A stretch of DNA of 64,000 nucleotides from Faecousia sp. (GCA_045596215.1 JAZOBY010000070.1:636-64635), one strand, 5' to 3'. Positions 40,721 through 63,398 are shown, counted from the first letter of the stretch. The notes: generated from the sequence alone by a model not told the origin. Numbers and translations are program-made.

Positions 40721-43360
40721 TTACAGTTTCTTCATTGCGTTTTCGCTTTGTTCCAGACTTGCGATCAAGTCCCGGGTCTTTTGTGCCTTTTCACGCTCTG
40801 CGGCAACCACGGCCTCCGGAGCACGAGAAACGAATTTCTCATTGCTGAGCTTGGCTTCCAGGCTGGCCAGGAACTTACGTTGGCTGTCCAGCTCCTTAGC
40901 GATCCGCTCCAATTCCTTGGCAACATCCACCAGCTGGCCCATAGGAATGTAGAGCTTCGCATCGGAAGTGGCACAAGTAATCATGCCGTCCAGATTTTCC
41001 GGCTCCTTATCCAAAAGGGTTACAGTATCGGCATATGCCAATCTCTGCATGAAGCCCTCGCCCTCGATGAATACCTTGGGATCATTGGCCAGGATATACA
41101 GTGCAGCTTTCTTGGAAGGCGGCACGTTCATCTCGGTACGGCGGTTACGGATGGCACGGATGGCTTCCATCACGGATTCCATACTGTTCTGCTCAGCCTT
41201 AAAGGCCAGGTCGGCACGGTACTGGGGCCATGCGGCAATGATCAGTGCGTCACCCTCGTGGGGCAGGCTCTGCCAAATTTCCTCAGTAATGAAAGGCATA
41301 AACGGATGCAACAGACGCAGGGTCTGATCCAGAACGTAAACCAACACCTGAATAGCTGTCTGCTTACGCTCAGCATCCTCGGAGTACAGTCTTGCCTTGG
41401 TCAGCTCGATATACCAGTCGCAGTAGGTGTCCCAAATGAAGTCGTAGATCTTCTGAACTGCAACGCCCAACTCGTACTTATCCATGTTCTCGGTGACTTC
41501 CGCAATCAGGTTGTTCAGCTTGGAAAGCACCCACTTGTCTGCGATTTCCAGCTTCTCCAAAGCGGGCAGTTCATTCACTGCATCCTCGCACAGGTTCATC
41601 ATGACGTAACGGCTGGCGTTCCACAGCTTATTGGCAAAGTTACGCATAGCTTCGCAGCGTTCCACATAGAAACGCATATCGTTTCCGGGAGAGTTGCCGG
41701 TGACCATGTTCATGCGCAGAGCATCGCAGCCGTACTTTTCGATCATTTCCAGCGGATCGATACCGTTGCCCAGGGACTTGGACATCTTACGGCCCTTATC
41801 GTCACGCACCAGACCGTGGATCAGCACAGTATGGAACGGAGTTTTGCCCACATGCTCACAGCCAGAGAAGATCATTCTGGCAACCCAGAAGAAGATAATG
41901 GCGTAGCCGGAGACCAGCACGTCCGTGGGATAGAATTTCTTCAAATCCTCGGTCGTATCCGGCCAACCCAAAGTCTCAAAGGGCCACAGAGCGGAGCTGA
42001 ACCAGGTGTCCAGCACGTCGGGATCACGCTCGATATTGGCACTGCCGCACTTGGAGCAAGTGCAGGCATCTTCCCGGGAAACGGTGATGTGACCGCAATC
42101 CGCACAGGTCCAAGCGGGAATCTGATGACCCCACCACAGCTGACGGGAAATGCACCAGTCACGGACGTTTTCCATCCAGTTCAGATAGGTCTTGCTGAAA
42201 CGGTCGGGAACAAACTTGGTCTCCCCTTCTTTGACCACACGGATGGCTTCCTCAGCCAGAGGCTTCATCTTTACAAACCATTGGGCAGAAATGATGGGTT
42301 CCACATCGTTATGGCAACGATAACAAGTACCCACATTGTGGGCATGCTCTTCCACCTTGATCAGGTAGCCGCCGGCTTCCAGGTCGGCAACGATCTGCTT
42401 TCTGGCCTCGTAGCGGTCCAGGCCCTCGTACTTGCCACCCAGAGCATTGACCTTGCCGTTATCGTCCAGCACGCGAATAACTTCCAGATTGTGCCGCAGG
42501 CCAACTTCAAAGTCGTTGGGGTCGTGGGCAGGAGTCATCTTGACGCAGCCGGTGCCGAATTCCATTTCTGCATAATCATCCGCAACAACAGGAATTTCCT
42601 TGTTGACCAAAGGCAGAATAACAGTCTTGCCAACGATGGAAGTATAACGCTCATCGTTGGGGTTGACGCACACACCGGAGTCGCCCAGCATGGTCTCCGG
42701 ACGGGTGGTGGCAACAATTACTTCGCCACTGTCGTCTGCCATGGGATAGCGGATGTGCCACAGATGGCCGGGCTTATCCACATATTCAACCTCTGCATCG
42801 GACAAAGCGGTAACGCAATGCGGACACCAGTTGATGATCCGACTGCCCTTGTAGATCAAGCCTTTTTCATACATGGACACGAACACTTCACGGACAGCCT
42901 TGGAACAGCCCTCGTCCATAGTGAAACGGGCACGCTCCCAGTCACAGGATGCACCCAACTTCTTCTGCTGTTCCACAATGCGGTTGCCGTACTTATGTTT
43001 CCAGTCCCACACCTTTTCCAGGAACTTTTCCCGGCCAAGGTCGTAACGGGTCAGGCCGTCTTTACGCAGTTCTTCTTCCACCTTGATCTGGGTGGCAATG
43101 CCGGCATGGTCAACACCGGGCACCCACAGGGCATCGTAGCCCTGCATCCGCTTGAAGCGGATCAGGGTATCCTGCAAGGTTGCGTCCATGGCGTGACCCA
43201 TGTGCAGCTGACCGGTAACGTTGGGGGGCGGCATGACGATGGTAAAGGGCTTTGCTCCCTCCTTACCCTGGGGCTTAAAGTACCCCTTTTGCTCCCACAT
43301 TTCGTACAGTTTGTTTTCTACTTGTTGGGGTTCGTAGACCTTTGGTAATTCTCTTGCCAT
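40721..43360 (-). CDS. valS: Valine--tRNA ligase
   Basis: [30 protein letters not shown]. Confidence 0.97.
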
Positions 43361-43373
43361 AATGCTCTCCTTT

Positions 43374-43606
43374 CAAAAAAGAAACGCCCTGAGGAAAAAC
43401 CTCAGGGCGAAAATACACATTTTCCGCGGTACCACCTGAATTTCCGGCAAGCCGGACACTTTGGCTGCTGTAACGGGCAGACCCGCACTTCCCTACTCTA
43501 TTCAGGAAGCAAGCTCCGAAGCGACCATTCCCATTTATCTTTGCGGACTCACACCAACCGTCCGCTCTCTGAAAAGAAAATACAGGAAACCTCTTCATCT
43601 AGGCTG
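43374..43606 (-). ncRNA. T-box riboswitch, Val (GUC) specifier, upstream of valS
   Basis: AGAGA and GGTG stem I motifs; GTC at 43525-43523; AATTCAGGTGGTACCGCG; terminator. Confidence 0.92.
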
Positions 43607-43736
43607 TTTACCAAAACAAATTATCACATTTTCCCGGGAATGTCAACCAAATTCTTTCCTTTTCCTCAATGTAATAAAACTTGACGGCATTGGGAAATCT
43701 GTTATAATAAAGAAAATCCTTTTGGGAGTTGACTGT

Positions 43737-47762: not shown

Positions 47763-48989
47763 TTACTTTTTGTCCCGCTTACGGGTAAGGTAAATATCCA
47801 GTTTTTCCTTCACATTTTCGGGGATTTCTCTGGCCACAGGACACTGGGCAGCATTGGCCATGCGATCAGTAAAGGTGGTGATAAATTCGATATCCTCCAC
47901 CATCTGCTCTCCGCTCATAACTGCAACCGTGTCATAGCCGTTATGGATGGTAGCCGTATTCGGAGGAGCGATCCGTGCAAAAGACAGAGCCGGCACGCCA
48001 TTGTCCGCAAAAGGTGTGGAATCGCTGGAATAAACATCCTGCTGGACCTTGATACCAAAGCCCAATTCCGCACCAAAATACTTGATGTAATGGGTAAGTG
48101 CCTCTTCTGTGGAGCAGCAAGCAATGAACTTGCCCATGATGCAGCCGATCATATCCAGGTTGATATTCAAAACGATGTCTTTCAGTTCATCCTCGTGAGC
48201 CTGGCAATAGGCTTTTGAGCCCAGCAAGCCTCGTTCTTCACTGCCGCACCAAATAAAACGCAGACCGTAACGGTGGGGATGGTTCACAAAGTATTCCAAA
48301 ACACCCAGGATACCCACAGAGCCGGACATATTGTCATATGCACCCTGAGAAAGGGATGTGGAGTCGTAATGGGCTGTCAAAACGATGTATTCCTGACGCT
48401 CACCGGGCAGATCCGCAATCACATTATGGGATTTGCCAGTAGCTTCCTCCTGCTTAATGGTGATTCTCGCCATGGATGCCCCATCCCGTGTCAATTCAAT
48501 GGCAGACTTGGCATTGATGTTCACACCCAGGATCTTGTTACCCTTGCTGACGTAACTACGCAGTTCACGCTGGTCAATGTCGTTATCCGTATAGTTGGCA
48601 TTGCCGTCATAGGTGATAAAGCCAACCGCTCCGTTTTCCAGCAGATCCTGATACATCCAGTAGCCCAGATAACCGTCGATCATAACGATCTTTCCCTTGC
48701 ACAGAGAAAGGCTGTACGGATCGGTACTACGCAGATAGTAAAGGGGTGCTTCCACTTTCCCGCTGCCGCAGTTCAGATATCCCTTGCAGGGGATTTCCTT
48801 GCCGTCCACGGTCAGAATTGCCTGCTCCATGGTTGCCATATCCACGTCGAATTCTTCCAGCACGGCAGAAACGCCCAATTCCGTGCATTTGCTTTGCAAA
48901 TATTTAGCAGCACGCAGTTCCTCAGAAGATCCACCCATACGCACATAGGCGGTCTCTTCAAAAATTTTCATAATTTGTTTTGCATCCAT
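47763..48989 (-). CDS. M28-family peptidase
   Basis: AHYD, GAYDN, GSEERGLLGS, NLDM. Confidence 0.88.
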   Translation of the reverse strand: MDAKQIMKIFEETAYVRMGGSSEELRAAKYLQSKCTELGVSAVLEEFDVDMATMEQAILTVDGKEIPCKGYLNCGSGKVEAPLYYLRSTDPYSLSLCKGKIVMIDGYLGYWMYQDLLENGAVGFITYDGNANYTDNDIDQRELRSYVSKGNKILGVNINAKSAIELTRDGASMARITIKQEEATGKSHNVIADLPGERQEYIVLTAHYDSTSLSQGAYDNMSGSVGILGVLEYFVNHPHRYGLRFIWCGSEERGLLGSKAYCQAHEDELKDIVLNINLDMIGCIMGKFIACCSTEEALTHYIKYFGAELGFGIKVQQDVYSSDSTPFADNGVPALSFARIAPPNTATIHNGYDTVAVMSGEQMVEDIEFITTFTDRMANAAQCPVAREIPENVKEKLDIYLTRKRDKK

Positions 48990-48991
48990 CT

Positions 48992-50296
48992 TTAGACCTC
49001 CGGATCGTCTTTCAAATGGAACGCCACTTTCAGATCTTCCACTTCGTCATCAGTAATGTGAACGATGTCACCCACCTCTTTGGACAGGATAATGGAATTG
49101 GCGGTGGACTCCATTACTTCCAGCCGGTCAAAGGCCTGCAGTAAGCTCTCGCCGGTCACCACAACACAGCTGTTTTCGATCATCATGGCCGGATGCACCG
49201 GGCTGAGGGCATCGGCAGTCTTGTCAGGTTCCAGATAAACCTGGTCATAGGGCAGCTTTTTCACATCCCGCAAAAGGATATAGCTTTCCGGGATGGTGCG
49301 GGGATCGAAAACTGCATCCGTAATGGCAAATGCCATGGAATTGACAGGATGAGCCTGTAAGATAGCCTTAATCTCCGGTTGTTTCTGATAGATCTTCTCA
49401 TGGAACAAAACGGCACGAGACGGGGTTTTCCCCTGCTCCTTCATGCCGGACTTGACACGCACAAGGTCATCTTCTTCCAGATATGCCCGGTCAAAATTGA
49501 AGGGCGTGATGAGGAAGCTGCCGTCTGCCAAACGCACAGAATAGGTGCCGTGGTTGGCAGTAAACAAGCCCATCTTGTAGGAACGGCGGATGAGGGTGAT
49601 CATATCCCGGCGAGCCGCCAGTTCCTCAGACGTGCGGCTGTGGGGGATGAAATCGTCCATTTTTGTATGATAACGGGTATCGCTGATACGGTATGCATCC
49701 GTGGCAAGGGGGCGGATTGTGCCCACCTTCTTGGCCAGAACCTCCAGAGTTGCCGTATAGTGCAGCGTCTCAAAACGCTGGAAGGCTGTGAACATATCCT
49801 TTGCACCGATGCAAACACCGTGATTCTCCAGAATCGCAATGTCACAACCGGACGCAAAAACAGAACCGATCTTCTCGCCCAATGCATCACTGCCCGGTAC
49901 GTCGTATTTTGCGATCTGCACGTCCGAACAGACCTTTCGGACAGAGGGAACCAAATCCAGATTGGGGCATTTACGGGCAATGGAAAACGCCACCAATGCC
50001 GGCGGATGGGCATGCAATACCGCTTGCAGATCCGGCCGCATATGGTACACCGAGGCATGGAACGGAAGTTCCGAAGATGGCTTGTGCTGACCCACGATCG
50101 TGCCGTCAGGCTTGACGCAGACGATATCCCCACGGGATAGCGTACCCTTGTCAACGCCGGCAGGTGTGATCCAGATATTACCCTCTTCATCCTTTATGGA
50201 CAAGTTGCCACCCGAAGTGGTAGTTAGACCCTTGTCATAAATACGCTGCATAAACATGACCAATTGGTCAGCCGGGTGAATGTATTGTATATTCAT
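48992..50296 (-). CDS. Class II aldolase with two tandem domains
   Basis: GGNLS, KPSSE, HAHP, ENHG in domain 1; degenerate second copy. Confidence 0.85.
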   Translation of the reverse strand: MNIQYIHPADQLVMFMQRIYDKGLTTTSGGNLSIKDEEGNIWITPAGVDKGTLSRGDIVCVKPDGTIVGQHKPSSELPFHASVYHMRPDLQAVLHAHPPALVAFSIARKCPNLDLVPSVRKVCSDVQIAKYDVPGSDALGEKIGSVFASGCDIAILENHGVCIGAKDMFTAFQRFETLHYTATLEVLAKKVGTIRPLATDAYRISDTRYHTKMDDFIPHSRTSEELAARRDMITLIRRSYKMGLFTANHGTYSVRLADGSFLITPFNFDRAYLEEDDLVRVKSGMKEQGKTPSRAVLFHEKIYQKQPEIKAILQAHPVNSMAFAITDAVFDPRTIPESYILLRDVKKLPYDQVYLEPDKTADALSPVHPAMMIENSCVVVTGESLLQAFDRLEVMESTANSIILSKEVGDIVHITDDEVEDLKVAFHLKDDPEV

Positions 50297-50311
50297 AATA
50301 ATCTCCTTAAC

Positions 50312-51769
50312 TCAAAATGTAAGCAAACGCTGATAGCCTTTCTCCCAGTCTTCTGTGTGATTGGGCTGATAGGTTTCAACAGTCTCAGAATTGCGGACGA
50401 TCTGACGCAGTTCGTCAATATCCTTGATATCACCAAGGGCCATAGCCTGAGCCAGCAGGTTGCCAATAGCTGCACCTTCCACCGGGCCGGTGATCACAGG
50501 GCGGTTAATGGAATCTGCCACCATCTGATTGAGCAGCTTGTTCTGAATACCGCCGCCAACGATGTTCAGCGTATCGATGCTCTGACCCTTGATCTCTTCC
50601 AGTCGCTCCAATGCCCAACGGTATTTCAGTGCCAGGGACTCGTAGATACAACGGGCGATTTGCCCCACAGTCTCCGGAACAGGCTGATTTGTGTCAGCAC
50701 AGAACTTCCGGATCTTCTGCACCATATTGCCACCGGCAAAGAATTCGCTGTAATCGGGATCAATGATGCTGCGAAGGGGTTCAGCTTTCTTGGCTTCCTT
50801 CACGATATCATCCCAACTGTACTTTGTTCCTGCTTTGATCCAGTCTCTGCGGCACTCCTGGATCAGCCACAGACCCATGATGTTCTTCAAGGGGCGGAAG
50901 CCGCCCTGAATGGTGCCCTCATTGGCAAAGTTGGCATCACGCACTTCCGGCGTCAGAATGGGCACATCCGTCTCCACGCCAAAGAGAGACCATGTACCGG
51001 AGGAACAAAACGCAAAGCTGCCGCTTCCGGGAATCGCTGCAACGGCGGATGCGGTATCGTGGGTGCCCACAGCGGCAAAATTCGCCTGATTAAGTCCAAA
51101 TTCCTCTGCCAGTTCCGGACGGAGCTTGCCACGCAGAGTGCCGGCCTGGTCGATTTCTGTAAAGATATGCTCCGGGATTCCCAGTGCTCGGATGCTATCC
51201 CAGTCCCAATCCCGGGTGGTGGGGTTGTAGAGCATGGATGTAGTAACATTGGTATACTCAGACTTCATTTCCCCAGTGAGGAAATAGCCCAGAAGATCGG
51301 GCATCATCAGAAGCTTCTGTGCCTGCTCCAAAGCCACATCATTTTGCCGCTTCCGGCGATAAAGCTGGTAGACAGTATTAAAATTCAGCTTTGCAATGCC
51401 GGTGCGGCTGAACAGTGTGGGAAAATCCACAATTTCAGATGCTGCGTCCATATCCTCGTCCACGCTGTAGCGGTATGCCCGGGGATTGCCCAACAGGTGT
51501 CCGTTGCGGTCCAGCAGACCGTAATCCACGCCCCAGGTATCAATACCAAAGCAGTCAAGGTCGCCAACGTTCGCCTGCTTGAAGGCCAGGAAGCCCTGTT
51601 TCAGCTGATTATAAAGATAAGGCAGATCCCAGTAGCAAACACCGTTCATCTCCACATAATTGTTTTCAAAACGGTGCAGCTCCCGCATGGTCAGTTTGCC
51701 GTTTTCCAACTGGCCCAAAATGGCACGGCCGTTGCTTGCACCCAAATCAAAAGCAAGTAAATTTCTCAT
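50312..51769 (-). CDS. rhaB: Rhamnulokinase/fuculokinase-like sugar kinase
   Basis: DLGASNGR, GIDTWGVDY, HDTASA, SSGTWSL, KNIMGLW. Confidence 0.85.
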   Translation of the reverse strand: MRNLLAFDLGASNGRAILGQLENGKLTMRELHRFENNYVEMNGVCYWDLPYLYNQLKQGFLAFKQANVGDLDCFGIDTWGVDYGLLDRNGHLLGNPRAYRYSVDEDMDAASEIVDFPTLFSRTGIAKLNFNTVYQLYRRKRQNDVALEQAQKLLMMPDLLGYFLTGEMKSEYTNVTTSMLYNPTTRDWDWDSIRALGIPEHIFTEIDQAGTLRGKLRPELAEEFGLNQANFAAVGTHDTASAVAAIPGSGSFAFCSSGTWSLFGVETDVPILTPEVRDANFANEGTIQGGFRPLKNIMGLWLIQECRRDWIKAGTKYSWDDIVKEAKKAEPLRSIIDPDYSEFFAGGNMVQKIRKFCADTNQPVPETVGQIARCIYESLALKYRWALERLEEIKGQSIDTLNIVGGGIQNKLLNQMVADSINRPVITGPVEGAAIGNLLAQAMALGDIKDIDELRQIVRNSETVETYQPNHTEDWEKGYQRLLTF

Positions 51770-51857
51770 AAGTATCAACCTTTCTGTCCCCTCCAAATGA
51801 TGGACGACCATAGATTTGCATATATATGATATCGTAAAAAAGTCTTTCTGTCAAATA

Positions 51858-51895
51858 GAATCCCGCCCTCTGCGGTCGCATAGGGCGGGGATTCT
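51858..51895 (-). terminator. Terminator
   Basis: AGAATCCCGCCCT...AGGGCGGGGATTCT. Confidence 0.6.
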
Positions 51896-54405
51896 CATAA
51901 TTGGCTTTTTGCGGTATCGGTGCCGTCGCCAACAAGCCCTAAACGCTCTGCCGCGTCCTGGCGCATCTTGTATTTCAGCACCTTGCCCGCAGCGTTCATG
52001 GGGAACGCATCCACAAACTCGATGTATTTGGGTACTTTATGCCGTGCCATGCTGGCTTTGATGTAAGCAAGCATTTCGTCCACCGTGACCGAACCCGCTT
52101 CTTTCAGCACGATACTGGCGTAGATCTCCTCGCCGTATTTCTGATCCGGTACGCCGATGACCTGTACATCCTTGACAGCTGGATGGGTATAAATGAACTC
52201 CTCGATTTCCTTGGGATAGATATTCTCACCGCCGCGGATGATCATATCTTTCAAACGACCGGTAATACGGTAATTGCCCGCTTCGTCACGACAGGCGATG
52301 TCACCGGAATGGAGCCAGCCTTCCGCATCCACTGTATCCGCAGTTGCCTGGGGCATCTTGTAATAGCCCTTCATGGTATTGTAACCACGGGAGCAGAATT
52401 CACCGTTGACGCCCGGGCCGACCTCTTCCCCAGTCTCCGGGTCAATGATCTTACATTGCACATACGGGAATGCATAGCCAACAGTATCGGTTCGCACTTC
52501 CAGAGAATCTGTCCAGGCAGACATGGTAGAGCCGGGAGCAGATTCCGTTTGACCGTAAACGCTGACGATGCCCCGCATATTCATTTCATCCGGTTGAGCA
52601 GCTCGTCGCATCAGTTCCGGAGGACAACCGGCACCGGCCATAATGCCGGTACGCATATGAGAAAAGTCCGTCTTGCGGTAGTCCGGATGGTTGAACATGG
52701 CAATAAACATGGTGGGCACGCCATTAAATGCAGTGATCTTCTCCTGATTGATGCAGGCCAAAGATGCCTTAGCAGAGAAATAAGGCATGGGGCACATGGT
52801 GGCACCGTGGGTCATGGAAGATGTCATGGACAGCACCATGCCAAAGCAGTGGAACATGGGTACCTGAATCATCATGCGGTCAGCTGTGGAAAGGCCCATG
52901 CGGTCACCGATACATTTGCCGTTGTTGACCACGTTGTAGTGGGTAAGCATAACGCCTTTGGGGAATCCTGTGGTGCCGGAGGTGTACTGCATGTTGCAAA
53001 CATCATCCGGGCGGACGGCAGCCGCCATAGCGGCAACCTGTTCCTCGCTGACCAGCGGGTATCTTGCCATAGCCTCGTCCATAGTCAGACATCCCGGCTG
53101 ACGGAAGCCTACCGTAATCACATTACGCAGGAACGGAAGCCGTTTACAGTGCAGGCTCTCCCCTGCCTTGGTCTGAGCGATCTCGGGGCACAGTTCGTTG
53201 ATGATGGCCTGGTAATTGGAGTCCAAACAGGAGTCGATCATCACCAACGTGTGGGTATCGGACTGACGAAGCAAATATTCCGCCTCGTGGATCTTATAGG
53301 CGGTATTGACGGTGACCAAAACCGCACCGATCTTTACTGTTGCCCAGAACGTGATATACCAAGCCGGGACATTGGTAGCCCAAATGGCGACCTTACTGCC
53401 GGCTTTTACACCCATGGACACCAACGCCCGGGCAAAACGATCCACATCCCGCTTGAATTCCTGATAGGTACGGGTATAGTCCAGGGTCGTATACTTAAAA
53501 GCATACTGATCCGGGAATTCATCAGCCACACGCTCCAAAACCTGATAAAAGGTCAGATTGATCAGTTCGTCCTTCTTCCACAGGTACTGACCTGTGCCGT
53601 CGTGATTCAAATAGAGGGATTTCTTTGCACCGCGGGGATTATGGAAGCGGCTCATGTAGTTGACAAAGTAAGGAAAAATAACATCCTGATCTTTCAGATC
53701 GTCCAGCCACTCCGGTTTCCATTCCAGGGAGATGAAGCCATCGTAATTGACGGAAGACAATGCCCGCATTACATCGGCAATGGGCATGGTTCCCTCACCA
53801 ATCAGCTGATAATTGCCCTGGTCGTCAGAATCCCGCAGGTGGACATGCCGGATATAACTGCCCAAATTTTTGATGGTAGCATCTGCACTTTCGCCCAAAT
53901 CACGGTAGGGATGGTGCATATCCCAAAGGGCACCCAAAAAGTCGCTGGCAAAGCGATCCATCATACTGCGAAGACGAGCAGTATCGGCATAAATACCGCT
54001 GGTTTTCAGCAAGATGCCCACGCCCAGTTTTTCCGCCTGGGGAAGTAAAATTTGAAGCCGTTGCTCTACAAGCACTTCATTATCGCTCAGGGCACAGGCA
54101 ACCACATACGGCACACGGGTATTGCCCGCAACCTCCATGAGGTCGAGCAGTGAATCGGTGTGGTCCTCCGCATCAGCAAGATCGCAGGAAGTGTCAAAAC
54201 AAGGGATCTGCAGTTTCTTATCCCGCAGCTGACGGACAGTGGCCGCAGACTGATACTTGTGAAACGGCCCGCCCCGGTCCAGCATGGGATCAAATTTGGG
54301 AAGATTATAGACTTCAATGCCGGAAAAACCCATTTCTGTGGCCGTATCCAGCATCTCATCCCAACTCATCCCGGGCCAACCACGGGTTGAAAAGGAGAGT
54401 TTCAT
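51895..54405 (-). CDS. Fusion of xylose-isomerase-like TIM barrel and acyl-CoA synthetase
   Basis: N-term WDMHH, HVHLRD, GEG, YDGFISLEW; C-term YTSGTTGFPKG, YGQTE, GWLHSGD, GRLKDMIIRGGEN. Confidence 0.9.
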   Translation of the reverse strand: MKLSFSTRGWPGMSWDEMLDTATEMGFSGIEVYNLPKFDPMLDRGGPFHKYQSAATVRQLRDKKLQIPCFDTSCDLADAEDHTDSLLDLMEVAGNTRVPYVVACALSDNEVLVEQRLQILLPQAEKLGVGILLKTSGIYADTARLRSMMDRFASDFLGALWDMHHPYRDLGESADATIKNLGSYIRHVHLRDSDDQGNYQLIGEGTMPIADVMRALSSVNYDGFISLEWKPEWLDDLKDQDVIFPYFVNYMSRFHNPRGAKKSLYLNHDGTGQYLWKKDELINLTFYQVLERVADEFPDQYAFKYTTLDYTRTYQEFKRDVDRFARALVSMGVKAGSKVAIWATNVPAWYITFWATVKIGAVLVTVNTAYKIHEAEYLLRQSDTHTLVMIDSCLDSNYQAIINELCPEIAQTKAGESLHCKRLPFLRNVITVGFRQPGCLTMDEAMARYPLVSEEQVAAMAAAVRPDDVCNMQYTSGTTGFPKGVMLTHYNVVNNGKCIGDRMGLSTADRMMIQVPMFHCFGMVLSMTSSMTHGATMCPMPYFSAKASLACINQEKITAFNGVPTMFIAMFNHPDYRKTDFSHMRTGIMAGAGCPPELMRRAAQPDEMNMRGIVSVYGQTESAPGSTMSAWTDSLEVRTDTVGYAFPYVQCKIIDPETGEEVGPGVNGEFCSRGYNTMKGYYKMPQATADTVDAEGWLHSGDIACRDEAGNYRITGRLKDMIIRGGENIYPKEIEEFIYTHPAVKDVQVIGVPDQKYGEEIYASIVLKEAGSVTVDEMLAYIKASMARHKVPKYIEFVDAFPMNAAGKVLKYKMRQDAAERLGLVGDGTDTAKSQL

Positions 54406-55802
54406 GCTTCTTCCTCCTCGTAAACGATCTTGTTAAGGGCACTGAGATACGCCTGAATGCTTGCACCCACGATGTCCGTGGAGATGCCACGACCGGAATA
54501 GAGTTTTCCGGAAGAACGAAGCTTGACAATGGTCTGACCCATAGCCGCACGACCCTCGGTAACAGACTGAATTTGGAAATCGTCCAGCTCATAATGGCGA
54601 CCGGTGATCTGCTCAATGGCCGCAAATGCCGCATCAATAGGACCGTCGCCCAGATATACGCCCTCCATAGGCACGCCGTTTTTCAGCAATTTCATATGTG
54701 CGGTCGCAGCTACTGTATTGCCGGATGTAATCACGTAATTATCCAGCTTATATGCGGACGGAACCTGCATAGCAGCAGAGGCCACAATGGCATCCAGTTC
54801 CCGGATCCCCACCTTGTCCCGCTTCTGTGCAAACTGCATGAAGGCCTCGTAAACTTTCATGCGATCTTCCTGAGAAAGATCATATCCCAGACGCTCTACT
54901 GCGGCACAAACCCCATCACAGTCGTCGTGGGAAGTCAAATAAATCTCGGAATTTTCCTGCACTTCATTGCCAAACCAGGAAACCTTGCTGCCATCCGCTT
55001 TGCAAATTCGCTGGATCTGCTCCACGATTCGGCTGAGCTTGGTCACATTAACATCCGTCTTTACACCCAATTCCTCGCCCTTGGCGGCCAAAACACGGGA
55101 TACATTGGTCATGTCAGCACAATCCTGAGGATATGCTGCACACTTAACCTCCCCTGCCCCTGCCTTGATTGCAGCAATGACACAGCTGTCGGCCATGGAC
55201 AAGGTGTTGGCACATCCCACACCCAGTGTGACCGTTTTCAATGCGGGAACGGAAGCGTACAAAGACGCAACAAATGCAGAGAACTCCTCAGGCAGCATTG
55301 TCCCGGCAGTATCTATCACGGTAACCGTCTTGGCACCGGCAGCAATCGCCGTTTCGATGGCCTTAAACAAAAATGCGGGCTCGCTTCTGGTGGCATCCTG
55401 AGCAACAAACTCCGTATCCGTCAATTTCCCACAGGCATGCACCGTCTCATCGATCGCCGAAAGCATTGCCTCAGGCTTTTTATGGAGCAAATACTCCATT
55501 TGCACAGAACTGACCGGTGCACACACTTGCAGGCGTGAGTGTTTAGCCAGACAAAGTGCGTTCCAGGTCTGCTCTACGCTCTCGGCAGTCAGTTCGACCG
55601 GGGCAGAAACGATGCTGTCATTTACAGCCGCAGCAATGGACTTGATCCGCAGAATATCAGAGCGAGAACCACGCAGACCTTCTACCTCAATCACAGTTGT
55701 GCCCAATCTGTCCAATAGTTTTGCCAACTCGATCTTCTCACGGAAGGACAAAGAAAAACCCTCCGCAGTCTGTTTCATGGTCATGTCGCTGATTTTGATC
55801 AT
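54402..55802 (-). CDS. 2-isopropylmalate synthase (LeuA)-like protein lacking catalytic motifs, regulatory domain intact
   Basis: QDATR, DTAG, GDGPIDAAF, TDIVGAS present; RDGEQ, HxH and GERAGN absent. Confidence 0.85.
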   Translation of the reverse strand: MIKISDMTMKQTAEGFSLSFREKIELAKLLDRLGTTVIEVEGLRGSRSDILRIKSIAAAVNDSIVSAPVELTAESVEQTWNALCLAKHSRLQVCAPVSSVQMEYLLHKKPEAMLSAIDETVHACGKLTDTEFVAQDATRSEPAFLFKAIETAIAAGAKTVTVIDTAGTMLPEEFSAFVASLYASVPALKTVTLGVGCANTLSMADSCVIAAIKAGAGEVKCAAYPQDCADMTNVSRVLAAKGEELGVKTDVNVTKLSRIVEQIQRICKADGSKVSWFGNEVQENSEIYLTSHDDCDGVCAAVERLGYDLSQEDRMKVYEAFMQFAQKRDKVGIRELDAIVASAAMQVPSAYKLDNYVITSGNTVAATAHMKLLKNGVPMEGVYLGDGPIDAAFAAIEQITGRHYELDDFQIQSVTEGRAAMGQTIVKLRSSGKLYSGRGISTDIVGASIQAYLSALNKIVYEEEEA

Positions 55803-55822
55803 TGTCTGTCACTCCTTAAAAT

Positions 55823-56074
55823 AAAAAGTCCCTGAGGCCGTATAGCCTCAGGGACGAATAAGCTTCGCGGTACCACCCTGATTATTTCCGCAACGGAAAT
55901 CCCTTTAGACTCCAACAAGTCCTATCCCTTAACGCGGGCCGACGGATCCCATTACTTGCGGATGCTTTTACAGGATCGACTCCGGAACCAGACCGTCTCA
56001 TTCAACCGCACCGGCTCACACCAACCGCCGGCTCTCTGGAGCTTTATGAATGTGACAGATTTTCCATCGCTGTC
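55823..56074 (-). ncRNA. T-box riboswitch, Leu (CUG) specifier
   Basis: AGAGA and GGTG motifs; CTG at 55991-55989; AATCAGGGTGGTACCGCG; terminator. Confidence 0.9.
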
Positions 56075-56169
56075 TTTCGTATAACATTGCCAATATTAAA
56101 GCACAGGATTTGGAATTTGTCAACAAAAATCTTTCAAAAAAATATTTTTTGTTTTTCACAAAAAAGCAA

Positions 56170-56198: not shown

Positions 56199-56217
56199 GC
56201 AACCAATATTTCAAAAA

Positions 56218-56475
56218 GGCTTTGACGAAGACGGTCGGATCCGAAGAATTACAGAGAGCCGGTGGTTGATGCGAATCGGTATTCTTCCCTCCACAGACCC
56301 ATCCCTTCCGAGCCGGAGTGCTGAATATTTTACATTAGTAAGCATCTCCCGTTTGCCTGCGTTAAGGGATAGGACTTGTTTGAGTCCGAAAAGTGGCAGT
56401 TATTCTGCAATTTGAGTGGTACCGCGGGTAGTTTATGCTCGTCTCAAGATTTTTCTTGAGGCGTTTTTTTATTTT
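56218..56475 (+). ncRNA. T-box riboswitch, Ile (AUC) specifier
   Basis: AGAGA motif; ATC at 56301-56303; AATTTGAGTGGTACCGCG at 56409-56426; terminator 56440-56470. Confidence 0.88.
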
Positions 56476-56492: not shown

Positions 56493-58781
56493 ATGTCAAA
56501 CACAACAACGTCTACACAGCTGATGGAGATCGCACAGCGAATTCGGGAGATGCGTGAGATTTTAGGCTTCAGCATTGAAAAGATGGCAACGCAGACAGAG
56601 GTTTCCACCGATCTTTACTGCCAATATGAAAGCGGCACGATTGATCTGCCCTTTACCTTTATGCACAAGTGTGCAAAAGCCTTTGGCCTGGAAATCACCG
56701 ACCTGTTGGAAGGCCACAGTGCCAAATTGTCCGGCTACACAGTCACCCGACGTGGTAAAGGTATGGTCACCGCCAGCGAGGATGGCATCACCATTCAGGA
56801 TATGGCACCTATGTTCCGCAAGAAGCTGGCTACCCCCTACTGGGTTACCTATCAGTATTCCGAAGATCTTCAGGATGAACCCATCCACACCACCACCCAC
56901 GACGGTCAGGAATTCAACATGGTCATCAAAGGTTCCGTTCGTATCCGTGTCGGTGACCACGAGGAAGTTCTTAACGAAGGTGACAGCATCTTCTATAAAT
57001 CCTCCACCCCTCATGGTATGATCGCCATTAACGGTGAGGATGCGGTCTTCCTTTCTATGATCATGGCCAGCGACAAGACAGACCAGGCACTGACAATTAC
57101 TCCTCAGCGTACCACGAAGTCCCCAGACCCCGATCTCCACCCGGATCAGCGTCTGCTTTGCAACGAATTTGTTTGGGGTATTGAGGATGCTAAGGGTCAC
57201 ATGACCGGCCTCAACTATGCCAACACGGACCGCTACAACTTTGCATTTGATACTGTGGATGCCATCGCACGGAAGGATCCAGACAAGCTGGCGATGATCC
57301 ATATTGCGGGCGATATGACCGAACGCCGCTTCACCTTTAAGGACATGAAGGACGGTTCTTCCCAGTGTGCCAATTATTTCAAGGCTCTGGGCATCAAACG
57401 GGGTGACCGGGTCATGGTGGTGCTGAAACGCCACTATCAGTTCTGGTTTGCCATTCTCGGTCTGCATAAGCTGGGTGCCATTGCCATTCCTGCGACAAAT
57501 CAGCTGATGGAACACGATTTCACCTACCGCTTCCAGGCAGGCGGAGTCAGTGCAATTCTCTGTACTGCAGATGGCGATACTGCCAATCAGGTAGATTTGG
57601 CCGAGCACGTATCCGGCATGAAACTGACTAAAATCATGGTAGGTGGACAGAAAGAAGGCTGGCATGACTTTAATGAAGAGTACAGCCTGTACAGCCGCCG
57701 TTATGTCCGTACTGATGACGCACCCTGTGGTGATGATCCCATGCTGATGCTCTTCACCTCCGGCACTACTGGCTATCCCAAGATTGCAATGCACAGCTAT
57801 AAATACGCTCTCGGCCACTATGTCACCGCCAAATACTGGCACATGGTGGAGCGGGACGGCGTTCATTTCACCATCTCCGAAACCGGCTGGGGCAAGGCAC
57901 TTTGGGGCAAGCTCTACGGCCAGTGGCTTTGCGAGAGTGCAGTCTTTACCTATGACTTTGACCGCTTCGACGCAGAAAAGATCCTGCCCATGTTTAAGCA
58001 GTACAACATAACTACCTTCTGTGCACCGCCGACCATGTACCGGATGCTGATCAAACAGGATCTGAGCAATTACGACCTCTCTTCCATCCATCATGCCACC
58101 ACCGCCGGTGAAGCATTGAACCCTGAGGTCTTCTATCAGTTTGAAAAAGCTACCGGTCTGCGGATCTACGAGGGCTTCGGTCAGACGGAAATGACCCTGG
58201 GCATCGCAAACCTCATCGGCGACACCATCAAGCCCGGTGCAATGGGTAAGCCTATTCCCGGCTATGGTATTGACATTGTGGATGCTGACGGCAATCCTGT
58301 GGAAGACGGCGTCAATGGTGAGATCGTCATTCACACCGATCCTGCCCCCTCCTGTGGCGTGTTCCTCGGCTATTACAACAATGCAGAAGCCACCGGTGAG
58401 GTCTGGCACGACGGAATGTATCACACCGGCGACCTTGCCTGGCGTGATGAGGATGGTTACTACTGGTATGTGGGCCGTGCGGATGACGTGATCAAGTCCT
58501 CAGGCTACCGGATTGGGCCCTTTGAAATCGAAAGCACCATCATGGAGCTTCCCTACGTTCTGGAATGTGGCGTTTCTGCCGCTCCCGACGAGGTTCGTGG
58601 ACAGGTTGTCAAGGCCAGCATCGTACTGGTTCCCGGCACCGAAGGTACGGAAGAACTGAAAAAGGAAATCCAAAACTACGTCAAGCAGCACACTGCTCCC
58701 TACAAGTATCCCCGGATTGTTGTGTTCCGCGATGAACTGCCCAAAACCATCAGCGGTAAAATCATTCGTAACAAGTTATAA
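56493..58781 (+). CDS. XRE-HTH/cupin/acyl-CoA synthetase fusion, paralog 1
   Basis: N-term HTH, HDGQEF cupin, FTSGTTGYPK, GFGQTE, YHTGD, KSSGYRIGPFE, PKTISGK. Confidence 0.92.
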   Translation: MSNTTTSTQLMEIAQRIREMREILGFSIEKMATQTEVSTDLYCQYESGTIDLPFTFMHKCAKAFGLEITDLLEGHSAKLSGYTVTRRGKGMVTASEDGITIQDMAPMFRKKLATPYWVTYQYSEDLQDEPIHTTTHDGQEFNMVIKGSVRIRVGDHEEVLNEGDSIFYKSSTPHGMIAINGEDAVFLSMIMASDKTDQALTITPQRTTKSPDPDLHPDQRLLCNEFVWGIEDAKGHMTGLNYANTDRYNFAFDTVDAIARKDPDKLAMIHIAGDMTERRFTFKDMKDGSSQCANYFKALGIKRGDRVMVVLKRHYQFWFAILGLHKLGAIAIPATNQLMEHDFTYRFQAGGVSAILCTADGDTANQVDLAEHVSGMKLTKIMVGGQKEGWHDFNEEYSLYSRRYVRTDDAPCGDDPMLMLFTSGTTGYPKIAMHSYKYALGHYVTAKYWHMVERDGVHFTISETGWGKALWGKLYGQWLCESAVFTYDFDRFDAEKILPMFKQYNITTFCAPPTMYRMLIKQDLSNYDLSSIHHATTAGEALNPEVFYQFEKATGLRIYEGFGQTEMTLGIANLIGDTIKPGAMGKPIPGYGIDIVDADGNPVEDGVNGEIVIHTDPAPSCGVFLGYYNNAEATGEVWHDGMYHTGDLAWRDEDGYYWYVGRADDVIKSSGYRIGPFEIESTIMELPYVLECGVSAAPDEVRGQVVKASIVLVPGTEGTEELKKEIQNYVKQHTAPYKYPRIVVFRDELPKTISGKIIRNKL

Positions 58782-58826: not shown

Positions 58827-58842
58827 TTTTTAGTAGAATAAA

Positions 58843-59093
58843 GGCGAAGACGGAGAGTTTCCACAAGCTTCCCATCGAAAGAGAAATGGCGGTCGGTGCA
58901 AGCCATGATGGGTTTTGTTGATTGTCGCTCCATCAGCCGGAAGGAAGAAAGCAACCGCCTGTAGAACCTTCCCGTGTCGGCCGCGTCAGTGCCTAATGAG
59001 TGGTATCTGCAATGGCAGATGCAATTTGAGTGGTACCGCGGGTATGTATTGTACAAACTCGTCTCAAAGGTTATCTTTGAGACGAGTTTTTTC
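58843..59093 (+). ncRNA. T-box riboswitch, Val (GUC) specifier
   Basis: AGAGA and GGTG motifs; GTC at 58924-58926; AATTTGAGTGGTACCGCG at 59023-59040; terminator 59056-59092. Confidence 0.86.
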
Positions 59094-59111: not shown

Positions 59112-61400
59112 ATGGACAAGATCATTACCGGAGTGGACAATAAAAACCGGGAAGTTGCGGCCCGTATCCGGGAACTTCGTGAAGTAACGGGGTTCACGGT
59201 AGAAGAAATGGCTGCACGCACCGGTCTGAGTGTTGAAGAATATCTGGCGTGCGAATCCGGCAACCGGGATCTGAGTATTGCGTTTTTGTACCACTGTACA
59301 TTAAGCTTTGGCGTGGACATGGGCGACCTTTTGGAAGGCCGCAGCCCCAAGCTTCGTTCTTACGCACTGACACGAAAGGGTCAGGGTCAGCGAATTGAAG
59401 AAGCCCACAACATGATCGGCTTCAACCTGGCGGCGGACTTCCGTAACCGTATTGCCCTACCGCTTTATATGGATCTTCCCTACCGTCCCGGTGCGGAGAG
59501 TGAGCCCATCCCCCTGACCACCCACTAAGGTCAGGAATGTGACATCGTCATCCGTGGTCATATGCGTATCCAGATCGGCGGACATACGGAGATCCTGCAT
59601 CCCGGCGACTGTATTTACTACAACAGTGCAACGCCCCACGGCATGGTAGCTGTAGACGGTGAGGACTGTGCATTCTACGCAATTGTTCTGCGTAACCAGG
59701 CCGCCCGTGAGGGCGATCACGATGCAACAGTGGTCTCCCCTGCGCAACTGGTTCAAACCCATGAAGAAGATTCCCGTATCTATCACGATTACATCGAAAC
59801 CACCGTAGAAAACGGTGTTCTGACCAAGATCGACTTCAAAAATCCGGATAAGTTCAATTTCGCCTTTGATGTGGTGGATGAACTTGCCCGGAGAAAGCCG
59901 GACAAGCTGGCCATGCTCCATCTTGCTGAGGACGGCACGGAGCATCGGTTTACCTTTAAGGATATCCAAAAAGAATCCGCTCGTGCGGCCAACTTCTTTA
60001 AATCCCTGGGTATCCAAAAGGGCGACCGGGTTATGCTGGTTCTGAAGCGGCACTATCAATTCTGGTTCGCAATGATGGGCCTGAATAAGCTGGGTGCAGT
60101 GGCAATCCCCGCCCCGAATCAGTTGCTGACCAAGGATTTTGCCTATCGGTTTGAGGCCGGCAATGTAAAAGCGATCCTCTGTACCGCAGACGGTCAGGTA
60201 GCCGATTCTGTGGATGAAGCAGCCGCATCCTGCCCGGTACTGAAAACCAAGATCCTGGTTGGCGGTAAGCGAAACGGCTGGCACGACTTTAACGAAGAGT
60301 GTGCCATGTTCAGCAGTCGCTTCCCCCGGACCGACGACGCACCCTGTGGCGATGACCCCATGCTCATGTTCTTTACATCCGGCACATCCGGTTATCCCAA
60401 ACTGGCAGCTCACAATCACAAGTATCCTCTGGGACACTTTATTACCGCCAAGTACTGGCACCGTGTTAATCCAGACGGTCTGCACCTGACTATCTCCGAT
60501 ACTGGGTGGGCAAAGTCCATGTGGGGCAAGCTCTATGGTCAATGGCTGTGCGAGGCGGCGATCTTTGTCTACGACTTCGACCGCTTTGATGCCGAAAAGA
60601 TCCTGCCCTTGTTCGCCAAATACGGCATCACCACCTTCTGTGCACCGCCTACCATGTATCGAATGCTGGCAAAGCGGGACCTCAGCCGTTTCGATCTGAG
60701 CTCCATCATTCACGCATCTACTGCGGGCGAGGCATTGAACCCCGAGGTCTACCGCCAGTTCCAAAAGGCAACCGGTCTGAGCATCATGGAAGGCTTCGGT
60801 CAGTCGGAAAGCACCCTGATCATCGGCAATACGGGCGGCAGCAGCCACAAGCTTGGCTCCATGGGCAAACCCGTACCTCTTTACGATGTGCACTTACTTG
60901 ATCCCGACGGCAACGAAGTAGACACCGGTGAAACCGGTGAGATCTGCATCAATATCAGCAACGGTCTACCCTGCGGCCTTGCCTATGCCTATGAAGGCAA
61001 CCCGGAAGTCACCGCCGAAACATGGCGTGACGGTTTCTACCACACCGGCGATCTTGCATGGAAAGACGAGGATGGCTACTACTGGTATGTGGGCCGTGCG
61101 GATGATGTGATCAAATCCTCCGGCTACCGGATCGGACCCTTTGAAATTGAAAGCACCATTATGGAACTGCCCTACGTTTTGGAATGTGGTGTTTCTGCCG
61201 CTCCCGACGAGGTTCGCGGCCAAGTGGTCAAGGCGAGCATCGTTCTGGTCAGCGGCTATGAAGGCAGCGACGCTCTGAAGAAAGAAATTCAGGACTATGT
61301 CAAACGCCGCACCGCTCCTTACAAGTATCCCCGAATTGTGGAGTTCCGTGAAAGCCTTCCCAAGACTACCAGCGGCAAGATCATCAGAAAGCAACTGTAA
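59112..61400 (+). pseudogene. XRE-HTH/cupin/acyl-CoA synthetase fusion, paralog 2, with one in-frame TAA at 59526-59528
   Basis: Same 2289-nt length as paralog 1; TTH*GQE versus TTHDGQE; frame continues after the stop. Confidence 0.8.
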
Positions 61401-61402
61401 TT

Positions 61403-62095
61403 ATGGAACATAAACGCGTAACCCTTTTCGCCGGACATTACGGCTCCGGCAAGACCAATATTGCCGTAAATTACGCACTTTACCTTGCCAAAGAGGGCAA
61501 AAAAGTGTGCATCGGCGATCTGGATATCGTCAATCCCTACTTTCGTACCAAAGACAGTGCGGATGTACTGGACGCGGCAGGCGTGGAGCTGATCAGCCCG
61601 CAATTTGCCAACACCAACGTGGATCTGCCGGCCTTGCCGGCGGAGGCGTACCGCTTGGTGGAAGACAAAAGCATCTACGCCATCATGGACATCGGCGGCG
61701 ATGACCGGGGTGCTTATGCCCTGGGCCGTTATACACCGGCAATTCTGGCAGAGAACGATTACCGAATGGTTTTCGTCGCCAACTGCTACCGCCCATTGAC
61801 CAAAACACCGGAAGATGCACTGGACGTGATGCGGGAGATTGAGGCCGCCTGCGGCATGAGATTTACCTGCATCGTCAACAATTCCCACCTGGGAGAGCTG
61901 ACCACACCACAGACGATTATTGACTCTGCCAAATATATCGAAAAACTGTGCGATATGTCCGGTCTTCCCCTGTGGCTGACCACTGCCAAGGAAGATGTGG
62001 CAACACAGATGGACGGCACCTTCCCCCTGCACTTGCAGGAAAAATACTTTGATTTACCGCCTCAGAAGCCGGTCAACCGGCCCCTGTGGGGATAA
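61403..62095 (+). CDS. P-loop NTPase associated with the oxidoreductase operon
   Basis: GHYGSGKT, DLDIVNPYFR, DIGGD. Confidence 0.8.
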   Translation: MEHKRVTLFAGHYGSGKTNIAVNYALYLAKEGKKVCIGDLDIVNPYFRTKDSADVLDAAGVELISPQFANTNVDLPALPAEAYRLVEDKSIYAIMDIGGDDRGAYALGRYTPAILAENDYRMVFVANCYRPLTKTPEDALDVMREIEAACGMRFTCIVNNSHLGELTTPQTIIDSAKYIEKLCDMSGLPLWLTTAKEDVATQMDGTFPLHLQEKYFDLPPQKPVNRPLWG

Positions 62096-62336: not shown

Positions 62337-63398
62337 ATGGAACAGAAAGTTCTGATGAAGGGCAACGAAGCCATCGCTGAGGCTGCCATCCGTGCCGGCT
62401 GTCGCCATTACTTCGGATATCCCATCACACCCCAAACGGAAATTGCCGCATACATGGCTAAGAAAATGCCCAAAATCGGCGGTGTTTTTCTGCAAGCGGA
62501 AAGCGAAATTGCATCCATCAACATGGTTTACGGTGCTGCCGCGGCCGGTATGCGTGCCATGACCTCCTCTTCCAGCCCCGGAATCTCTCTGAAAACCGAA
62601 GGTTTGAGCTACATCGCCGGCTCTGACGTGCCTGCATTCGTCGTCAACGTACAGCGCGGCGGCCCTGGTCTGGGTGGTATTCAGCCTTCTCAGTCCGACT
62701 ATTTCCAGGCAACCAAGGGCGGCGGCCATGGCGACTATCGCATGATCGTCCTGGCTCCCGCTTCCGTGCAGGAAATGGCCAGCCTGACCATCAAAGGCTT
62801 CAACCTGGCTGACAAGTATCTGATGACCGCGATGATCCTTGCTGACGGCACCATCGGTCAGATGATGGAACCCATTTCCTTTGAAGATGCCGAGATTGAG
62901 AAGTACGAAAAGCCCTGGGCACTCACCGGCACCAACTGCGAGCGTAAGCACAACATCGTAAACTCCCTGTACTTAAAGCCGGAGGAGTTGGAAGTCAAGA
63001 ACTTTGAACGCTACGAGCGTTACAAGATCGTAGAAGAAAACGAACCCATGTGGGAAGAGTACATGATGGATGACGCGGAGTATTGCGTCGTAGCATTCGG
63101 TATCGCATCCCGTGTGGCCAAGAATGCTGTTGTTGCCGCCCGTGCTGAGGGCATCAAGGTGGGTCTGATCCGTCCCATCACCCTGTGGCCCTTCCCCACA
63201 AAGGCTCTGAACGCCGCTGCTGACAAGGTCAAAGGCTTTATCAGCGTGGAGCTGAATATGGGTCAGATGATTGAAGATATCAAGCTGGCAACGGAGTGTA
63301 AAAAGCCTGTCGCCCTGTGCAACCGCACCGGCGGCATGATCCCCAGTCCTGACCAGGTTCTGGAATCCATCAAAAACGCAACGAAAGGAGTTTACTGA
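62337..63398 (+). CDS. vorB: 2-oxoacid:ferredoxin oxidoreductase alpha subunit (VorB-like)
   Basis: [42 protein letters not shown]. Confidence 0.88.

Follow-up and report, generated by a model that had tools for sequence, protein, structure and literature searches.

Positions 54402-55802 (minus strand) of a 64,000-nucleotide stretch of Faecousia sp. DNA (GCA_045596215.1 JAZOBY010000070.1:636-64635), here called the window, encode a LeuA-like protein that is very probably a conserved, selected pseudoenzyme derived from LeuA. The gene lies behind a leucine-specific T-box and its stop codon overlaps the start of a gene for a TIM-barrel/acyl-CoA ligase fusion. It is likely that the two proteins serve together in a route of leucine supply, because the ligase, the VorB-type oxidoreductase encoded in the same cluster, an aminotransferase found in relatives, the T-boxes and the scarcity of leuB and leuC in carrier genomes all fit together. 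A more specific role may be regarded as an evenly balanced proposition: the LeuA-like protein would be a non-catalytic subunit that binds leucine and regulates a ligase activating isovalerate, the whole serving to salvage leucine through reductive carboxylation. The operon comprises the following features.

55847-56079, minus strand: Leu T-box, the operon leader (Rfam RF00230, 110.1 bits against a gathering score of 93)
55989-55991, minus strand: specifier codon CUG (Leu) in the Stem I specifier loop, from an alignment of about 80 orthologous leaders
55823-55855, minus strand: T-box terminator hairpin and U-run, read from the sequence
55812-55817, minus strand: ribosome-binding site, AAGGAG
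54402-55802, minus strand: coding sequence of the LeuA-like protein (very probable pseudoenzyme), a single intact open reading frame of 466 amino acids plus stop
54999-55802, minus strand: residues 1-268, DRE-TIM barrel without catalytic residues (AlphaFold2 model and alignment)
54807-54998, minus strand: residues 269-332, shortened linker and subdomain region, with the HxSGIH..TYEI stretch deleted
54405-54806, minus strand: residues 333-466, LeuA-type regulatory domain (LeuA_dimer, PF08502) with the GDGPIDA and GISTDI motifs
54402-54405, minus strand: ATGA overlap between the stop of the LeuA-like gene and the start of the ligase gene
51895-54405, minus strand: fusion of a TIM barrel (ketose-3-epimerase-like, residues 1-255) with an acyl-CoA ligase, 836 amino acids (Pfam, NCBIfam and fold matches)

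Loss of the catalytic apparatus

The first-pass annotation had described an intact, full-length reading frame for a LeuA stripped of its catalytic motifs, and both parts of that description hold. The frame is unbroken over its whole length, and every string that had been quoted is found in the translation, with ISDMTMKQTAEG standing for DTTLRDGEQ and GVGCANT for HCHND, alongside GDGPIDAAF and TDIVGAS. To judge the residue losses, 12 true short-form LeuAs were taken for comparison from genomes belonging to the same bacterial family. The counterpart of DTTLRDGEQ is DMTMKQTAE, in which the substrate Arg has become Lys and the metal-binding Asp has become Gln. The HxH metal ligands are gone, the motif now reading GCANT, and His occupies either position in at most 2% of 114 family members. 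The GERAGN loop has been shortened by deletion and its remaining residues replaced, and the Glu of the EDAxR strand, which is Gln in this protein, persists in only 22% of members. In subdomain I, about 20 residues (K..IVG.NAFAHESGIHQ..TYEI, including the catalytic His of HxSGIH) are deleted in 93-100% of members.

The same losses extend across the family. In an alignment of 110 representatives reaching down to about 30% identity, to which true LeuAs were added, none of the 110 has the Arg-Asp-Gly-Glu/Gln motif, either His of HxH or the GERAGN loop, all of which are present in the three true LeuAs alongside. The former Arg position holds R, K, C, S, A or T across the family, and the HxH positions hold many different residues. 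Residues 13-258 match the Pfam HMGL-like family (PF00682, E 1.5e-28), and the curated LeuA models of NCBIfam all match at about half of their cut-offs (NF002086, 283.6 against 532; TIGR00973, 254.3 against 598.7). The HCS_D2 domain (PF22617), carried by true LeuAs, is absent from the Atlas neighbours of the protein. Public annotations label members of the family as 'hypothetical protein', as '2-isopropylmalate synthase' or with domain-only names.

The LeuA-like family is found in about 600 species genomes, mostly those of gut and rumen members of Oscillospiraceae, Faecousia and Acutalibacteraceae, and it forms more than 100 clusters at 50% identity in which length, fold and regulatory motifs are kept. 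Its reading frame is unbroken in nearly all of these genomes, and the pairwise ratio of nonsynonymous to synonymous substitution rates (dN/dS) among 28 orthologues is 0.03-0.30 across barrel, linker and regulatory domain, with 0.07-0.30 for the barrel. Neutral decay of the orthologues, which the first-pass annotation had named among the observations that would refute its reading, is not seen. With the catalytic residues lost family-wide, the fold kept, purifying selection in force and the regulatory domain the best conserved part, the earlier proposal of a pseudoenzyme is well founded. Two sampled copies contain one in-frame TAG each (G011:C44:15485-16909 and G081:C65:4575-5975); the former has no ligase within the 1.6 kb left on its contig and may be a decaying copy.

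A conserved LeuA-type regulatory domain

The C-terminal domain is recognized as LeuA_dimer (PF08502) over residues 334-459 (E 5.8e-30; 104.3 bits against a cut-off of 24.9), covering model positions 5-130 of 131. Regulatory residues that are invariant in LeuA are retained in at least 90% of the 114 members (G387, P388, A391, A395, G417, G437, G439, S441, T442, Y452 and N457). Conservation within the family peaks in the C-terminal third, and the invariant residues are F20, K109, G385, G387, G439, D443, A455 and N457. The regulatory domain shares 41-47% identity with true short-form LeuA from its own bacterial family, about 31-36% with long-form LeuA and 23-27% with CimA-like proteins; the dead barrel shares 34-36% with the LeuA barrel. 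By these comparisons the dead copy is evidently derived from a short-form LeuA, with the sensor end as its least changed part.

Given the family alignment, AlphaFold2 yields a model with a mean predicted local distance difference test score (pLDDT) of 92.1, with values of about 97 over the barrel and below 50 only in residues 274-284, within the shortened linker. The best Foldseek matches to this model in the PDB are structures of methylthioalkylmalate synthase and LeuA (6e1j, 3hpz and 3fig), and its barrel superposes on 3eeg with a root mean square deviation of 1.6 Å over 272 columns. The most strictly conserved motifs, GDGPIDA and G.GISTDI, are placed by the model at the N-terminal ends of helices 388-400 and 444-465. 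In the LeuA of M. tuberculosis, as described in PMC11057210, the leucine carboxylate is held between the N-termini of two helices of the regulatory domain. The barrel, for its part, contains several polar residues that hardly vary within the family (D6, T8, S98, E103, Y104, K109, D136, R139 and D164).

T-box control and coupling to the acyl-CoA ligase

A Leu T-box ahead of the gene had been noted in the first-pass annotation, and the leader indeed scores above the Rfam gathering score. In the leader alignment, the specifier site lies directly 5' of the Stem I closing helix; its first two bases, CU, are invariant and the third is G or C. The T-box can be assigned to leucine because CUG or CUC is kept at this site while the flanking bases vary. 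A GGGAC...U-run element is also kept in the orthologous leaders. The discriminator rule links a UGGU bulge to tRNAs with A73, and the Leu T-box contains such a bulge, which fits discriminator A73.

The fusion protein encoded downstream matches the Pfam families AP_endonuc_2, AMP-binding and AMP-binding_C and, in NCBIfam, PRK12583 at 667 bits. The overlap of the LeuA-like stop with the ligase start, reported in the first-pass annotation, is confirmed in the window, and this 4-nt overlap is kept in 66 of 77 related loci, with a 1-nt overlap in 7 more. Adjacency is similarly conserved: the LeuA-like gene adjoins the ligase in 79 of 80 loci, and the ligase is its sole invariant neighbour. Of 12 further loci from other genera (42-50% identity), 9 keep the pair side by side, eight of which have a T-box above the gathering score, and in two of the three non-adjacent loci the contig ends just past the LeuA-like gene. 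The link to the neighbouring ligase that had been proposed is therefore supported by adjacency and translational coupling within and across genera and by the presence of the ligase in every sampled carrier genome (see below).

The N-terminal domain of the ligase (residues 1-255, window positions 53641-54405) is a xylose-isomerase-like barrel resembling ketose-3-epimerases, UlaE and AsbF (pLDDT 88.5; template modelling score 0.65-0.74). Of the four usual metal-ligand positions it retains D162, H189 and E228, the position of the first Glu being Leu or Lys, and it may be a second disabled or repurposed barrel of the same system. When the LeuA-like protein was co-folded with this TIM domain, a complex was weakly supported: the score was 0.36, against 0.00 for the best of three controls, in a range (0.60 or below) that holds only 7 of 80 solved complexes but both of the mismatches; the co-folding mark itself was reached by 58 of the 80 solved complexes and by 2 of 110 mismatched pairs. 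Contact agreement in the co-folding runs was at least 39%, and partner pLDDT at least 78.

Distribution among genomes and scarcity of leucine-pathway genes

Co-occurrence, which had been suggested as a check, was assessed by sampling the taxonomic family at one genome per genus, 101 genomes in all. Of these, 21 encode the LeuA-like protein, and all 21 carriers also encode the TIM-ligase. LeuB was detected above its cut-off in 3 of the 21 carriers and in 56 of the 80 non-carriers. In the metagenome-assembled genome (MAG) to which the window belongs (G000, 80.6% complete), none of leuB, leuC, ilvC and ilvD was found above cut-off, and none was found in three well-assembled carriers (G068, G090 and G092); in a further genome (G093), ilvC and ilvD are present and the leucine branch was not found. 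An apparent second, real LeuA in G000, an HMGL-like protein without LeuA_dimer, was considered and rejected: its neighbours are aconitase-like and isocitrate/isopropylmalate-dehydrogenase-like, none of them reaches the Leu cut-offs, and the cluster (C47:10785-15615) looks like a glutamate branch of the Re-citrate-synthase type, not leuABCD.

In three genera, a branched-chain aminotransferase gene (PF01063) lies directly 3' of the TIM-ligase (G090:C46:10133-10855, G092:C59:4983-5705 and G093:C1:143357-144079). In these genomes it would complete an operon of T-box, LeuA-like gene, ligase and aminotransferase.

The TIM-ligase also occurs without its partner. In nine sampled genomes it is encoded with no LeuA-like gene, and a tenth (G066) has a divergent LeuA-like copy at 30% identity. 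The six partnerless ligases that could be included in a ligase tree form one clade with 100/100 support, for which a single loss or gain accounts; the root of this tree is not established. True LeuA and LeuB are carried by G002, G028, G044 and G077, and in three of these genomes, G002 (L112), G028 (L106) and G077 (L108), a Leu (CUC) T-box stands directly ahead of the partnerless ligase.

The surrounding cluster

On the opposite strand, the conserved neighbours of the operon encode a 2-oxoacid:ferredoxin oxidoreductase, a small P-loop protein and two acyl-CoA synthetases with helix-turn-helix (HTH) and cupin domains; the divergent Ile and Val T-boxes drive the two synthetases and the oxidoreductase.

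56213-56449, plus strand: divergent T-box with specifier AUC (Ile) (Rfam, 97.7 bits; 54 leaders aligned)
56493-58781, plus strand: HTH, cupin and acyl-CoA synthetase 1 (MbcS-like), syntenic in related loci
58838-59069, plus strand: third T-box, specifier GUC (Val) (73.9 bits, E 7e-16; below the Rfam gathering score)
59112-61400, plus strand: HTH, cupin and acyl-CoA synthetase 2, with an in-frame TAA at 59526-59528
61403-62095, plus strand: small P-loop protein (ParA/ApbC-like, a weak match), syntenic
62337-63398, plus strand: VorB-type alpha subunit of 2-oxoisovalerate:ferredoxin oxidoreductase (NF005507 VorB, 547.6 bits against a cut-off of 399)
From 63400, plus strand: oxidoreductase beta subunit of the PorB_KorB family, running off the window (63999)

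Each of the two synthetases joins an N-terminal XRE-type HTH and a cupin domain to an adenylate-forming enzyme and stands behind its own T-box, for Ile and for Val, in an enzyme-plus-DNA-binding layout reminiscent of BirA. One acyl-CoA ligase of the cluster is MbcS-like at 434 bits, below the model cut-off; MbcS is a branched-chain acyl-CoA synthetase of S. aureus (PMC10026030, PMC11167679). A Ser reading (UCC/UCA) of the specifier in the Ile T-box was dropped, since tRNAs with A73 are what the UGGU bulge and the register of the helix fit. The TAA within synthetase 2 falls inside a cupin motif (TH-E-GQECD) at a position that is Glu in 14 of 15 orthologues and Val in one, and it reflects a nonsense change of one base or else a fault in the assembly; from the ATG at 59562, translation of the ligase part could begin again.

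A rhamnulokinase-like FGGY kinase, a 434-residue double class II aldolase and an M28 peptidase (47763-51811, on the ligase strand), together with YfhO, were considered as operon members and set aside, being common to the closest relatives only; the kinase, the double aldolase and the peptidase are probably not part of the system. Elsewhere in the window, a fourth T-box (43400-43610, 122.8 bits) precedes a class I tRNA synthetase gene whose product has the C-terminal arm of Val-tRNA synthetase (valS, 40721-43360).

Discussion

Rumen and gut anaerobes convert branched short-chain acids into branched-chain amino acids by reductive carboxylation, and the parts needed for this route are present in the cluster and its relatives, namely acyl-CoA ligases, a VorB-type oxidoreductase and, in relatives, an aminotransferase. 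In the model favoured here, a shortage of leucine would induce the operon of the LeuA-like gene and the ligase through the Leu T-box. The ligase would then convert isovalerate to isovaleryl-CoA in the first, ATP-consuming step, the neighbouring VorB-type oxidoreductase would carboxylate isovaleryl-CoA reductively to 2-oxoisocaproate, and a branched-chain aminotransferase would yield leucine. The LeuA-like protein, probably a dimer held together by its regulatory domains as in LeuA, would bind both leucine and the ligase, and would thereby add a fast end-product feedback to the slower control exerted by the T-box. In this model we infer that the protein binds leucine and physically contacts the ligase, and we likewise infer the direction of regulation and the substrate of the ligase.

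The LeuA-like protein shares its domain order with short-form LeuA (TIGR00973/NF002086; 3rmj, 3eeg and 3ewb; full-length M. tuberculosis LeuA, 1sr9 and 3fig), with a DRE-TIM barrel, a linker and a beta-beta-beta-alpha regulatory domain whose motifs are kept. It differs from short-form LeuA in having lost the metal ligands, the Glu base, the GERAGN loop and the subdomain-I stretch, and in scoring at about half of the family cut-offs; furthermore, its gene is coupled to an acyl-CoA ligase instead of adjoining leuBCD, and its host genomes are mostly without leuB. The closest analogue in principle is provided by HisZ, an inactive paralogue of histidyl-tRNA synthetase that is the regulatory subunit of the short-form ATP phosphoribosyltransferase HisG. 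In both cases a dead paralogue of an enzyme that recognizes the end product would have been reused on the first enzyme of the supply route, but fold and partner are unrelated, and the HisZ complex and its histidine feedback have been shown experimentally, whereas a complex and leucine feedback are predictions for the LeuA-like protein. A second parallel is found in IlvN/IlvH, the ACT-domain regulatory subunit of acetohydroxyacid synthase. There, too, the site for the end product resides on a separate polypeptide encoded beside the catalytic subunit, as is proposed for the LeuA-like protein; IlvN and IlvH are small ACT-domain proteins, whereas the LeuA-like protein is a full-length dead enzyme of 466 residues. 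Full-text literature searches on LeuA pseudoenzymes and on reductive carboxylation of isovalerate found no published description of the LeuA-like family, and no published gene cluster in which a dead LeuA is combined with T-box control and a separate ligase for each amino acid.

Several observations weigh against the proposed regulatory role or narrow it. The ligase works without the LeuA-like protein, as the nine genomes with a partnerless ligase indicate, and in three of them the Leu T-box precedes that ligase directly. Because one ligase clade follows a Leu T-box without the partner, the LeuA-like protein is an optional accessory to the ligase, a status that fits a regulator and is no proof of one. 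Among longer proteins, no fusion of the LeuA-like protein with the ligase was found, the search yielding one unrelated multi-domain protein, and this absence is weak evidence. The genomes used for co-occurrence are related to one another, and many are incomplete MAGs. The fusion protein is a probable isovalerate-CoA ligase, its substrate assigned from context, and the ligand of the LeuA-like protein could be another branched-chain compound. Lastly, the barrel may do more than hold the sensor, since it is under purifying selection and keeps its nearly invariant polar set.

A purely structural contribution, in which the LeuA-like protein would be a scaffold, a dimerisation or stabilising subunit of the ligase or a bridge to the oxidoreductase, with no sensing of leucine and with the regulatory domain as a dimer interface, is unlikely. 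It would accommodate the selection acting on the barrel and the conserved coupling to the ligase, and the regulatory domain of LeuA is also a dimerisation domain, as its Pfam name records; the co-folding score, higher than in the controls and in the range shared by few solved complexes and both mismatches, could be read in the same way. The strictest residues of the family, however, are the two glycine-rich motifs at helix N-termini that form the amino-acid site of LeuA, which a pure scaffold would not need, and the partnerless clade shows that the ligase folds and works alone.

Distinctly unlikely is a sensor directed at another ligand (2-oxoisocaproate, isovalerate, isovaleryl-CoA, isoleucine or valine) or a regulator of the oxidoreductase or the aminotransferase. 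The affinity of the regulatory domain to true LeuA is closer than that to CimA-like proteins, and the operon is under a Leu T-box, both of which favour leucine, even though the same domain binds isoleucine in citramalate synthase (reference list of PMC9860122) and an entry for M. tuberculosis LeuA with ketoisocaproate exists (3hps). With respect to the target, the aminotransferase does belong to the operon in three genera, but the ligase is the only invariant neighbour.

It is also improbable that the protein is a new enzyme whose barrel, by itself or jointly with the ligase TIM domain, has a metal-independent activity on which leucine supply depends. Such an activity would be in keeping with purifying selection on the barrel, with the nearly invariant polar residues by the C-terminal ends of its strands (D6, S98, E103, Y104, K109, D136, R139 and D164) and with D162, H189 and E228, the metal-ligand positions kept in the ligase TIM domain. 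The former catalytic positions, on the other hand, vary freely within the family, subdomain I, the lid of the LeuA active site, is deleted, the isovalerate route requires no added chemical step, and there is a ligase clade that lacks the partner. A related idea is that the dead barrel keeps its pocket for acyl-CoA or 2-oxoacids and, with the ligase TIM domain, forms a metabolon of two disabled barrels in which the direct hand-over of isovaleryl-CoA to the VorB-type oxidoreductase is gated by leucine; this we consider a long shot.

A decaying, functionless relic of leuA in lineages that lack the leucine pathway, to which the scarcity of leuB and leuC in carriers and the in-frame TAG in two sampled copies (G011 and G081) might have pointed, is already refuted by the selection and conservation data, with frames intact in nearly all of about 600 genomes, low dN/dS, more than 100 clusters retaining length, fold and regulatory motifs, and conserved T-box and translational coupling.

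If the model of a leucine-binding regulatory subunit is correct, it would tie genes to a long-standing physiological observation, the recovery of leucine, isoleucine and valine from fermentation acids by anaerobes of gut and rumen. The protein would also represent a case in which end-product control has moved from a lost pathway to a salvage route through the recycling of the allosteric domain of the old enzyme. On the practical side, some pipelines label the family as 2-isopropylmalate synthase, so that automated metabolic reconstructions could wrongly credit carriers with the ability to start leucine synthesis, and the LeuA-like protein is itself a candidate natural leucine-sensing module.

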